33,060 bases of DNA, taken from Escherichia coli. GTDB taxonomy: Bacteria > Pseudomonadota > Gammaproteobacteria > Enterobacterales > Enterobacteriaceae. Positions 1 through 33,060 of this stretch are shown here, in pieces. How positions within the stretch are numbered: the first letter of the stretch is position 1; each line of letters opens with the position of its first letter. The notes under the pieces were generated by a model. That model was not told where the DNA came from and ran no database searches. It saw only the letters and a program-made list of their open reading frames with translations. The DNA is taken from NCBI RefSeq assembly GCF_003334315.1, contig NZ_QOWR01000052.1; one strand, given 5' to 3'. A program made the position numbers and the translations under genes.

Positions 1-60
1 AGTGGTGGCGCATTATAGGGAGTTATTCCGGCCTGACAAGAGGAAATTTAAAATAATTTT
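1..60 (-). promoter_or_regulatory. rRNA operon P1-type promoter (by synteny rrnA P1) with upstream A/T-rich UP element, transcribing leftwards out of the window
   Basis: Minus strand of 1-60 reads AGAAAATTATTTTAAATTTCCTCTTGTCAGGCCGGAATAACTCCCTATAATGCGCCACCACT: -35 TTGTCA (34-39), 16-bp spacer, -10 TATAAT (12-17), GC-rich discriminator GCGCCACC, matching the rrnB/rrnA P1 promoter as I remember it. hemG lies directly upstream of rrnA in E. coli. Confidence 0.8.
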
Positions 61-88
61 CTGACCGCGCATTTTTTATTCTTTATGC

Positions 89-634
89 TTATTTCAGCGT
101 CGGTTTGTCGGTTAAATGGGCGATTTCTCGGGCGAAATTCGCCACCTGCTCCCAATCGGTATAGACAACTTCTTTGCGCGTATCCGTTTCACCGCCTGAC
201 ATCTTCATAATCAGCTTGATCATAAAACGGTCGTACCAGCGATAACGTGGGTAACGCAGCGCCCCGGCAATGACCGCGCAGCGATCGGGACGCCATTGCG
301 AGTTCATCAGAAACTTGCGCGCGTAGCTGTTGGTCTGTGGAGTACGCTTCTCCGGTTTGCGCGCCACCAGATTCACGGAGTAAAAGGCGCTCGGCATCGA
401 ATTCAGCCGCGTCGCATGTTTTTTGACAAATTCCTGGAACGCTGAATGGTAGTGACCATAGCGAATAGAAGCACCAATGACCACACGGTCATAGTTTTCC
501 CACTGTGGTTCTTCAATGCGGTGCACATTGGCGACATCCGCCTGGATCCCCAGTTCTTTCAGTTCCGAAGCCAGGTAGGAGGCAATCTCGCGCGTTTGTC
601 CGTCCCTTGTTGAGAAAAGAATTAATGTTTTCAC
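89..634 (-). CDS. hemG: protoporphyrinogen IX oxidase HemG (flavodoxin-like, menaquinone-dependent)
   Basis: 181-aa ORF beginning [25 protein letters not shown], a flavodoxin-like fold; follows trkH as in E. coli. Confidence 0.9.
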
Positions 635-645
635 GTATTACTCCA

Positions 646-2097
646 TCATTCACGCCAGAAAGTCGGGGTAAAGAGCACCAGCAATGTAAAGACCTCGAGA
701 CGACCAAACAGCATGTTGGCAATCAGGATCCATTTAGCCACCGGGTTCATACTGGTAAAGTTATCAGCAACCACGCCAAGCCCTGGCCCCAGGTTATTCA
801 ATGTCGCAACAACCGACGCAAAGGCAGAAAAGTCATCCACGCCCGTGGCGATAATCGCCAGCATACTGACAATAAACACCAATGCATAGGCGGAGAAAAA
901 TCCCCAAACGGCTTCGAGGATACGTTCCGGCAGTGCGCGATTCCCCAGCTTAATGCTATAGACGGCGTTCGGATGCACCAGTCGTTTCAGCTCACGGTTC
1001 CCCTGCTTAAACAGCAGCAGGATGCGGATCACCTTCAGGCCACCGCCCGTTGACCCGGCGCAACCGCCGATAAAGGCTGAACATAAAAGCAGTACCGGCA
1101 AAAAGAGCGGCCAGCGGGCAATGCTGTCAGTTGTAAACCCGGCGGTTGTCGCCATCGACACCACCTGGAAAAACGCCTGGTTAATTGTCATCAGCGCCGA
1201 ACTGTAGACATTATGAAACCACAGTACGAGGGTACAAATAACCACCAGCGTAAACTGTACGCCGATAAACATGCGAAATTCCGGATCGCGCCAATAAACC
1301 TTCAGACTACGCCCACTTAACAGTGAAAAGTGCAGACCGTAGTTACAGCCGGAGATCAGCAGGAAGATAGCAATGATAGTGTTAATAGTCGGGCTATCGA
1401 AATAACCGATACTGGCATCATGTGTCGAGAAGCCGCCAATAGCGATAGTCGCAAAGCTATGGCCGATGGCATCAAAGGCATCCATTCCGGCAAACCACAA
1501 CGCCAGCGCACAGGCGACGGTCAGCAAGACATAAATCAACCACAGGGTTTTCGCCGTTTCCGCAATTCGCGGGCGCATTTTGTTATCTTTCAGCGGGCCG
1601 GGCATTTCTGCGCGATAGAGCTGCATCCCACCCACGCCGAGGATAGGCAGTATCGCAACCGCTAACACGATGATCCCCATCCCGCCAAACCATTGCAGCA
1701 TCTGGCGATAAAAGAGGATGGCATGAGGGAGCGAATCCAGCCCCACCAGCGTAGTGGCCCCGGTGGTGGTCAGGCCAGAGAAAGATTCAAAAAACGCATC
1801 GGTAATCGTGAGGTTCGGGCTTTCCGAGAAGATAAAAGGGAGCGCACCGACACTACCCAGCACGGTCCAGAACAGCACCACTATCAGAAACCCCTCACGG
1901 GATTTCAGTTCGCCCTTCTCTTTGCGGTTCGGCCACCACAGCATAGAGCCAATGGCGAGGGCGACAAAAAAGGTCTGGGTAAAAGCGCGGCCCGCTCCAT
2001 CCCGGTAGATGAGTGCTACCAGCCCTGGGATAATCATGGTCCCTGAAAATAAGATGACCAGTAGTCCAACGATTCGGGTAATGGCGCGAAAATGCAT
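646..2097 (-). CDS. trkH: Trk system potassium uptake protein TrkH
   Basis: 483-aa polytopic membrane ORF (MHFRAITRIVGLLVILFSG...) located between yigZ and hemG. Confidence 0.9.
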   Translation of the reverse strand: MHFRAITRIVGLLVILFSGTMIIPGLVALIYRDGAGRAFTQTFFVALAIGSMLWWPNRKEKGELKSREGFLIVVLFWTVLGSVGALPFIFSESPNLTITDAFFESFSGLTTTGATTLVGLDSLPHAILFYRQMLQWFGGMGIIVLAVAILPILGVGGMQLYRAEMPGPLKDNKMRPRIAETAKTLWLIYVLLTVACALALWFAGMDAFDAIGHSFATIAIGGFSTHDASIGYFDSPTINTIIAIFLLISGCNYGLHFSLLSGRSLKVYWRDPEFRMFIGVQFTLVVICTLVLWFHNVYSSALMTINQAFFQVVSMATTAGFTTDSIARWPLFLPVLLLCSAFIGGCAGSTGGGLKVIRILLLFKQGNRELKRLVHPNAVYSIKLGNRALPERILEAVWGFFSAYALVFIVSMLAIIATGVDDFSAFASVVATLNNLGPGLGVVADNFTSMNPVAKWILIANMLFGRLEVFTLLVLFTPTFWRE

Positions 2098-6460: not shown

Positions 6461-7633
<1,173 letters not shown>

Positions 7634-7639
7634 CCACTT

Positions 7640-7826
<187 letters not shown>

Positions 7827-13277: not shown

Positions 13278-15520
<2,243 letters not shown>

Positions 15521-31950: not shown

Positions 31951-32331
31951 ATGTTACGTATATTTATCCCAACATCTAACGGTAAGATTTCCAGACGTCG
32001 TTATATATTTTCATTTATTTTAATAAATTTCATTTTTGCCTTTCTTATTATCTTTTTTAACGATGGAGAAGCAGGCTTTCTTGTTATAGTCTCTACCATC
32101 GTACTCCATTATCTCGTCATCAACATGAATTGCCAGCGACTCCGTGATAGTGGTTTCATCTATATAAAAACTTATGTTTTTGGTACATTAGCAGTATATA
32201 TCATCTCTATCATCACAATGATAGCCGAAGATTTTGCCTGTTCAGGCAATGGTTCGATGATTTTTTTGATTTGTTATTTTTCCACTTTCAGTATGCTAAT
32301 GCTTGCACCTACTGATTCATCAAAACAATAG
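31951..32331 (+). CDS. yigG: small uncharacterised inner membrane protein YigG
   Basis: [67 protein letters not shown]... (126 aa from ATG 31951; in-frame alternative starts at 31891 and 31915); lies in a visibly AT-rich stretch. Start codon uncertain. Confidence 0.65.
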
Positions 32332-32344
32332 TTATGGAGTATTT

Positions 32345-32629
32345 ATGAGTAAGGAATATATGAACGATGGTTCATTAAGTGAAAAATGGAAATACCGATT
32401 TAATTTTTATGATCAACATGGTTTTCCTGGATTCTGGGGGGCAACACCAGAATATAAAGCAGCATTTAAAGCATTAAAAGTAAGACAACGCTTAACTATT
32501 CAAATGAATTTCATTGCTTTCTTCTGTTCCTGGATATATTTATTTGTCCTGGGGTTATGGAAAAAAGCAATTATAGTTCTATTACTTGGTATTCTATCTC
32601 TATTTGTGGTAATGACTCCAACTTATTGA
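32345..32629 (+). CDS. yigF: small uncharacterised membrane protein YigF; reading frame runs into the IS1 end at 32608, so the last 7 codons and the stop come from IS1
   Basis: [53 protein letters not shown]... (94 aa here). Final codons GTG GTA ATG ACT CCA ACT TAT TGA overlap the IS1 terminal inverted repeat that begins at GGT 32608. Confidence 0.6.
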
Positions 32630-33060
32630 TAGTGTTTTATGTTCAGATAATGCCCGATGACTTTGTCATGCAGCTCCACCGATTTTGAGAACGACAGCGA
32701 CTTCCGTCCCAGCCGTGCCAGGTGCTGCCTCAGATTCAGGTTATGCCGCTCAATTCGCTGCGTATATCGCTTGCTGATTACGTGCAGCTTTCCCTTCAGG
32801 CGGGATTCATACAGCGGCCAGCCATCCGTCATCCATATCACCACGTCAAAGGGTGACAGCAGGCTCATAAGACGCCCCAGCGTCGCCATAGTGCGTTCAC
32901 CGAATACGTGCGCAACAACCGTCTTCCGGAGACTGTCATACGCGTAAAACAGCCAGCGCTGGCGCGATTTAGCCCCGACATAGCCCCACTGTTCGTCCAT
33001 TTCCGCGCAGACGATGACGTCACTGCCCGGCTGTATGCGCGAGGTTACCGACTGCGGCCT
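32608..33060 (-). mobile_element. IS1 insertion sequence, partial (right-end terminal inverted repeat and insB 3' portion; continues beyond the window)
   Basis: 32608-32652 is GGTAATGACTCCAACTTATTGATAGTGTTTTATGTTCAGATAATG, the reverse complement of the IS1 right end, followed by sequence that matches IS1 insB coding sequence as I remember it. Confidence 0.92.
32623..33060 (-). CDS. insB: IS1 transposase InsB (C-terminal part; 5' end lies beyond the window)
   Basis: Minus-strand translation ...[125 protein letters not shown] with TAA stop at 32623-32625; the frame stays open upstream to the window edge. Confidence 0.9.

Follow-up and report, generated by a model that had tools for sequence, protein, structure and literature searches.

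The rrnA P1 promoter at the edge of a stretch of Escherichia coli DNA, and predicted Fis sites that extend from it into the 3' end of hemG

The minus strand at the left end of a 33,060-nt stretch of Escherichia coli DNA (RefSeq assembly GCF_003334315.1, contig NZ_QOWR01000052.1; the whole stretch is referred to below as the window) carries a promoter-like sequence that would direct transcription out of the window and is preceded by the end of hemG. This arrangement raises two questions, namely what the promoter transcribes and how far its activating region extends into the neighbouring gene. An initial annotation, made from the letters of the window, had placed a ribosomal RNA (rrn) P1 promoter in positions 1-60, with an rRNA operon just beyond the edge, and had proposed that the region bound by Fis and by RNA polymerase at the UP element reaches into the hemG coding sequence. 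In the following, signed positions are counted from the transcription start (+1), and unsigned ones are positions in the window. The elements at the edge are these:

Positions 89..634, minus strand: hemG coding sequence, 181 amino acids, with the TAA stop codon at 91..89 (open reading frame list and RefSeq annotation).
Positions 43..63, minus strand: UP element CAGAAAATTATTTTAAATTTC (-60..-40), intergenic, identical to the UP element of rrnB P1.
Positions 34..39, minus strand: -35 hexamer TTGTCA (-36..-31), in columns that are 96-100% conserved.
Positions 18..33, minus strand: 16-bp spacer, invariant in length among species and variable in sequence at -30..-25.
Positions 12..17, minus strand: -10 hexamer TATAAT (-14..-9), the same in all species apart from a Buttiauxella/Cedecea-like group, which has TATACT.
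Positions 4..11, minus strand: G+C-rich discriminator GCGCCACC (-8..-1), in columns that are 87-100% conserved in about 60 species.
Position 3, minus strand: presumed transcription start of rrnA P1 (+1, A), placed by identity to rrnB P1 (TATAAT-GCGCCACC-A) and by the known start of that promoter.

Read from 63 to 1, the minus strand is CAGAAAATTATTTTAAATTTC-CTC-TTGTCA-GGCCGGAATAACTCCC-TATAAT-GCGCCACC-ACT, and a generic sigma-70 scan scores TTGTCA-N16-TATAAT as matching at 11 of the 12 hexamer positions. The start, which we take to be the A that follows GCGCCACC at window position 3, lies 9 bp from the -10 hexamer with the G+C-rich discriminator in between, as is characteristic of rrn P1 promoters; its position follows from sequence identity. 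This register is validated by the Fis sites footprinted at rrnB (-71, -102 and -143), because they score at exactly those positions when they are counted in the same way. Among about 70 species the columns T-53..T-48, A-56/-55, A-45 and T-43 of the UP element are 90-100% conserved. Thus, hexamers, spacer, discriminator and UP element are all found where the initial annotation had located them.

The DNA to the left of the window was inspected in E. coli K-12. Window positions 1-1200 are 100% identical to K-12 and to numerous further E. coli chromosomes; all 5,426 complete genomes contain a match to them. In K-12 a complete 16S rRNA gene begins 290 bp left of window position 1, which is 292 nt after the P1 start, and is followed by genes for tRNA-Ile, tRNA-Ala, 23S and 5S rRNA and then by mobB, the order of the rrnA operon. 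RefSeq (NC_000913) names the 16S gene rrsA (b3851), and Rfam finds at this locus a full-length SSU_rRNA_bacteria (1578 bits) together with two tRNAs. The two downstream elements, in coordinates of the K-12 locus (L001), are as follows:

L001 7781-7809: P2-like element TTGACT...TATTAT, between P1 and the 16S gene, in the place expected for P2.
L001 7990-9531: 16S rRNA gene (RefSeq rrsA; Rfam).

The P2-like element lies about 120 bp and the 16S gene about 290 nt downstream of P1, as in rrn operons generally, and the predicted 16S gene some 300 bp to the left is therefore a real one in K-12. The strain of the window is not K-12 itself: the two are identical over positions 1-1662 only and 98.4-99.5% identical elsewhere. 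The repeated nature of the rrn operon to the left explains why the window ends at this point.

We aligned the upstream regions of all seven rrn operons of K-12 by the -10 hexamer. From about -70 to beyond +10, rrnA P1 is identical to rrnC P1 and to rrnB P1, and in the latter case the identity includes the UP element, the -35 hexamer, the spacer, the -10 hexamer, the discriminator and the start. Further likenesses to rrnB are a Fis site at -71, a 16S gene 292 nt after +1 in both operons, and a co-directional upstream gene that ends near -85 (the stop codon of murI at -84..-82, that of hemG at -88..-86). However, the sequences upstream of about -72 are unrelated, and the operons differ in their spacer tRNAs (tRNA-Ile and tRNA-Ala in rrnA, tRNA-Glu in rrnB). 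Since the stop codon of murI is at -84..-82, its coding sequence contains the footprinted rrnB sites at -102 and -143, and therefore rrnA is not alone in having an activating region that overlaps the gene before it. The stop codon of gmhB stands similarly at -79..-77 in front of rrnH, so that in rrnA, rrnB and rrnH (loci L002, L003 and L008) a co-directional gene (hemG, murI or gmhB) ends between -77 and -88. These are the same three promoters for which Maeda et al. (2015, PMC4696680) reported binding of H-NS; promoter activity is lowest at rrnA and rrnH, with rrnB next. The rrnA P1 of that study, and of Hirvonen et al. 2001 (J Bacteriol 183:6305), is the same promoter as the one described here, with an UP element, multiple Fis sites and a measured activity, and we see no difference in kind.

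Window positions 1-63 of the minus strand are thus the P1 promoter of the E. coli rrnA operon, an already known feature, whose UP elements have also been discussed elsewhere (bioRxiv 10.1101/2020.02.05.936344). In its proposed mode of action, RNA polymerase with sigma-70 would bind the near-consensus -35 and -10 hexamers, while the C-terminal domains of its alpha subunits (alpha-CTD) would bind the A/T-rich UP element at -60..-40. A Fis dimer at -71 would touch the alpha-CTD and thereby stimulate initiation during fast growth; both the UP element/alpha-CTD mechanism and activation by Fis are established for rrnB P1 (summarised in PMC4696680). A short-lived open complex, and with it responsiveness to ppGpp/DksA and to the initiating NTP (iNTP), would result from the combination of the 16-bp spacer, a discriminator rich in G+C and a start 9 bp away from the -10 hexamer. 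Given its identity to rrnB P1, we infer such an open complex for rrnA P1, along with regulation by growth rate, ppGpp/DksA and iNTP. From window position 3, transcripts would leave the window on its left side, pass P2 and the leader and reach rrsA after 292 nt.

Within this conserved promoter some variation was seen. The -10 hexamer reads TATACT and not TATAAT in Buttiauxella, Cedecea and their relatives (at the equivalent of window 12-17 in loci L041, L067, L069, L071, L072, L077, L082, L086 and L088), and the spacer and the UP element differ there in sequence as well. In E. coli strain SCPM-O-B-8794 (L009) and in L011 the spacer positions -30..-25 (equivalent to window 28-33) are GCTCAG and not GGCCGG, and therefore the P1 spacer is polymorphic inside the genus Escherichia. 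These genomes also carry a few changes in Fis site I and just upstream of it.

The second question concerns hemG, which RefSeq describes as encoding a menaquinone-dependent protoporphyrinogen IX dehydrogenase and which is itself preceded by trkH, yigZ and pepQ. Relative to +1 at window position 3, its stop codon occupies -88..-86, leaving only about 25 bp of non-coding DNA between it and the UP element, room for one Fis site. Because of this geometry both the UP element and Fis site I fall in the intergenic DNA, and only Fis sites farther upstream can overlap hemG. The interval from the hemG stop codon to rrnA P1 (window 1-91) showed no detectable intrinsic terminator, and without one transcription of trkH-hemG would be expected to continue across the Fis/UP region and P1 as far as the rrn leader.

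Additional Fis sites are to be expected from the literature. According to Maeda et al. (2015, PMC4696680), three to five Fis sites, all of them upstream of the UP element, have been proposed per rrn P1, and their gel shifts, with multiple Fis complexes, reproduced for rrnA the number reported earlier. The rrnA probe of that study begins at window position 247 (-244) and contains 156 nt of hemG coding sequence; by elimination, the extra rrnA sites must lie in hemG, because the non-coding DNA of the probe beyond the UP element (about 25 bp) fits just one. In addition, a ChIP-seq study in Salmonella names rrsA among the loci known to bind Fis and confirmed its enrichment anew.

To locate such sites we scored 15-bp cores with a Fis matrix, a heuristic based on the published Fis consensus and not a trained model. 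On the positive control, rrnB, its top hit was the site at -143, followed by that at -71, and the site at -102 came fourth. Fis at rrn P1 promoters was reportedly footprinted with DNase I by Hirvonen and co-workers in 2001. Three cores are considered at rrnA P1:

Positions 67..81, minus strand: Fis site I, core GAATAAAAAATGCGC (-78..-64, centre -71), intergenic; score 9.3, the best upstream of rrnA P1.
Positions 87..101, minus strand: predicted Fis-like site II, core GACGCTGAAATAAGC, centre -91, with a conserved G-N13-C core; it spans hemG codons 178-181 together with the stop codon and the 2 nt that follow.
Positions 107..121, minus strand: predicted Fis-like site III, core GCCCATTTAACCGAC, centre -111, with a conserved G-N13-C core; it lies in hemG codons 172-176.

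The score of site I falls within the top 0.01% of the window background, and its position is that of the footprinted site I of rrnB, whose core is GGTTGAATGTTGCGC; the two cores differ in their distal part. The two predicted sites are spaced by 20 bp, in contrast to -102 and -143 at rrnB. In K-12 they score 1.83 (-91) and 3.93 (-111, in about the 1% tail), which is at or below the 99th percentile of the window (4.05), against 5.98-9.36 for the proven rrnB sites, all by the heuristic matrix. The same matrix gives mean scores of 4.9-5.1 across species at -91 and -111.

Conservation was assessed in 71 sequences less than 95% identical to one another, and a core was counted as Fis-like if it scored above the window's 99th percentile. 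Site I is Fis-like in 94% of these species, with conservation values of 1.00 for G-78, 0.99 for C-64 and 0.96-0.99 for A-72..-70. The corresponding figures for the predicted -91 site are 72%, with G-98 at 0.96, C-84 at 1.00 and the A/T centre at 0.90, and for the predicted -111 site 76%, with G-118 at 1.00, C-104 at 0.97 and the A/T centre at 0.88; G-118 opens a conserved Ala codon, and the protein accounts for its conservation. Among all 617 candidate 15-bp centres from hemG to P1, eight have G(-7) and C(+7) both conserved at 0.9 or more, and only three of those eight are also A/T-rich at the centre, namely -111, -91 and -71, set at intervals of exactly 20 bp and adjoining the UP element. Two overlapping strong Fis-like 15-mers at -218 and -222 (window 214-232, minus strand; scores 8.1 and 6.8) were considered as distal sites and left out, because the conservation is about 55%, they lack jointly conserved G and C at +/-7 and they coincide with A/T-rich Met/Ile/Lys/Phe codons. 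The figure of about 55% is the share of species in which the -218 15-mer, which is inside hemG, is conserved; the A/T richness of both 15-mers may be driven by the protein through those codons.

A comparative test of the coding tail was made with hemG loci from 80 Enterobacteriaceae species (L009-L088). Most of the draft contigs end 30-400 bp past hemG, the signature of a repeated rrn operon; 14 reach a 16S start, 54 hold the P1 core as matched by a regular expression, and the rest are too short or carry TATACT. Wherever a contig extends as far as P1, the core is conserved. Between the start codon of hemG and the start site of P1 the sequences contain no insertions or deletions, and the 80 species can be stacked without gaps. 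HemG nevertheless varies between 176 and 183 amino acids, as the stop codon shifts through point mutations only (within the equivalent of window 80-110). For proteins of 181, 180, 177, 183 and 176 residues the offset from the stop codon to the -35 hexamer is 49, 52, 61, 43 and 64 bp, respectively, and three times the length of HemG plus this offset equals 592 in every case.

Against this fixed spacing, individual codons stand out. Leu174, at the centre of the -111 core, is encoded by TTA in 94% of species, as against 0-38% at ten other conserved Leu codons of hemG. Codon 176 specifies 13 different amino acids, yet its third base, which is C-104 (the +7 base of the core), is C in 97%, the most conserved third base among 26 codons with a variable residue (the next two are 0.85 and 0.75). 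G-98 is retained whether its codon is a TAG stop, TCG, CCG, ACG or GCG. The normalised synonymous diversity reaches the minimum of the whole gene at codons 145-168; permutation gives p = 0.019 for codons 147-168 and p = 0.036 for codons 145-176, values not corrected for phylogeny, and control blocks elsewhere are not depleted. Codons 165-176 alone show no significant drop in synonymous diversity (p = 0.26), and the constraint in the last 12 codons is site-specific (174 and 176) and not regional. These patterns indicate selection at the DNA level on the hemG tail.

Several other explanations have to be weighed against a P1 promoter with an extended Fis region. That the sequence at the edge resembles a promoter by chance, with no connection to rRNA, can be considered on the general ground that consensus scans yield false positives, but TTGTCA-N16-TATAATGCGCC occurs once in the 33-kb window as against 0.01 expected from dinucleotide-preserving shuffles, the core is conserved and identical to rrnB and rrnC P1, and a full rrn operon, with its 16S gene recognised by Rfam, begins 292 nt downstream; on this evidence we reject a chance match, whose probability is negligible. 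A more serious alternative accepts the promoter and lets its activating region end at the intergenic Fis site I, the conservation in the hemG tail being due to the context of termination, to needs of the mRNA 3' end or to codon bias. It would agree with the weak K-12 scores of the -91 and -111 sites on the heuristic matrix and with the modest statistics of synonymous constraint (p of about 0.02-0.04). Moreover, at rrnB P1 site I alone supplies most of the activation by Fis, and by analogy the distal sites of rrnA may matter little. On the other hand, the constrained bases are exactly the G(-7), the C(+7) and the A/T centre of 15-bp cores phased by 20 bp from site I, codon bias would be expected to disfavour a rare Leu codon such as TTA, C-104 persists through changes of amino acid and G-98 through these and through the switch between sense and stop codons, and several Fis complexes form on a fragment with room for one non-coding site upstream of the UP element. 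We therefore regard this alternative as unlikely.

In a third explanation the A/T blocks at -71, -91 and -111 are functional, but through intrinsic curvature or through H-NS or Lrp, and not as Fis sites II and III. Their distance of 20 bp, about two helical turns, is that found in curved upstream DNA, and H-NS binds the rrnA, rrnB and rrnH promoters (Maeda et al., PMC4696680). Neither curvature nor H-NS, however, needs an invariant G and C placed 7 bp to each side of an A/T centre, which is the signature of Fis, and the matrix that detects this signature also recovers the footprinted rrnB sites. As a replacement for the Fis sites we find this explanation quite improbable; the two readings are compatible with each other.

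We accordingly prefer the reading in which the window contains rrnA P1 with its UP element and Fis site I, followed upstream by further Fis-type sites in the hemG tail that give window 87-121 a dual role, and we put its probability, as a whole, at about 0.93. The Fis-type sites at -91 and -111 would lie two helical turns apart on the same face of the helix as site I and probably stabilise an array, and we infer that they are the additional Fis sites seen in gel shifts and that they contribute to activation. Window 87-121 would then both encode the poorly conserved C-terminal tail of HemG and belong to the activator region. The UP and Fis mechanisms and the multiple Fis complexes on the rrnA fragment come from the literature, and the architecture and its conservation from the present analysis. 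The initial annotation, which had the activating region run into the hemG 3' end, is hence supported, indirectly, with respect to the predicted distal Fis sites (-91 and -111), by the number of Fis sites in gel shifts and by conserved Fis-type cores under synonymous and third-position constraint; it does not hold for the UP element and Fis site I, both of which are intergenic.

A bolder version of this reading would be that a rigid, gap-free array of three Fis sites (-71, -91 and -111), kept in strict register with hemG throughout the Enterobacteriaceae, dictates codons of the HemG tail (TTA174, NNC176 and NNG178) while the stop codon drifts by point mutation between 176 and 183 codons, so that selection on the last ten hemG codons would come mainly from promoter architecture and not from what the protein does. 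We lean slightly towards this version. The locus resembles other cases of regulatory sites in the 3' end of an upstream gene, in that the DNA of the last ten hemG codons is constrained over and above its coding role (TTA174, the C of codon 176 and G-98). It differs from typical dual-use DNA in that the protein constraint on the tail, which varies in sequence and length, is weak, so that the conflict of codes is mild.

In Enterobacter, Lelliottia and their kin (L030-L055 and others), the segment -85..-37 (equivalent to window 40-88) resembles the region upstream of E. coli rrnG P1 (GTGAGCGAACGAnAAGTTTTT) and not that of E. coli rrnA. The similarity suggests exchange between rrn operons reaching as far as about -85, that is, the end of hemG.

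As rrnA P1 is one of the seven E. coli rRNA promoters, which are among the most studied, its identification at the window edge adds nothing new. The modest new element is the comparative evidence, drawn from alignments, that promoter architecture may fix the spacing and several codon choices of the HemG tail. It would represent a small, clean case of regulatory constraint written into codons (fixed spacing, TTA, a third base), unsurprising to specialists. For annotation its value is practical: tagging, deleting or recoding the 3' end of hemG could disturb the activation of rrnA P1.

Some other features of the window were recorded in passing. The right edge (32608-33060) is the end of an IS1 element with the terminal repeat GGTAATGACTCCAACTTATTGATAGTG; a 125-aa open reading frame at 32623..33000 on the minus strand matches the NCBIfam IS1 transposase family (E = 1.5e-36), and the element interrupts a yigF-like open reading frame (32303..32629), yigF being intact in K-12. 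A REP-type repeat region at 7633-7824, in the interval between fadA and fre, includes an Rfam naRNA4 match at 7692..7769 and is shorter than its K-12 counterpart by one repeat unit (about 98 bp). Finally, the annotated small RNA EsrE accounts for an Rfam 'Erse' match (319 bits) at 14915-15166 on the minus strand; it lies wholly within the 3' end of the ubiJ coding sequence, another stretch that is both coding sequence and RNA gene.
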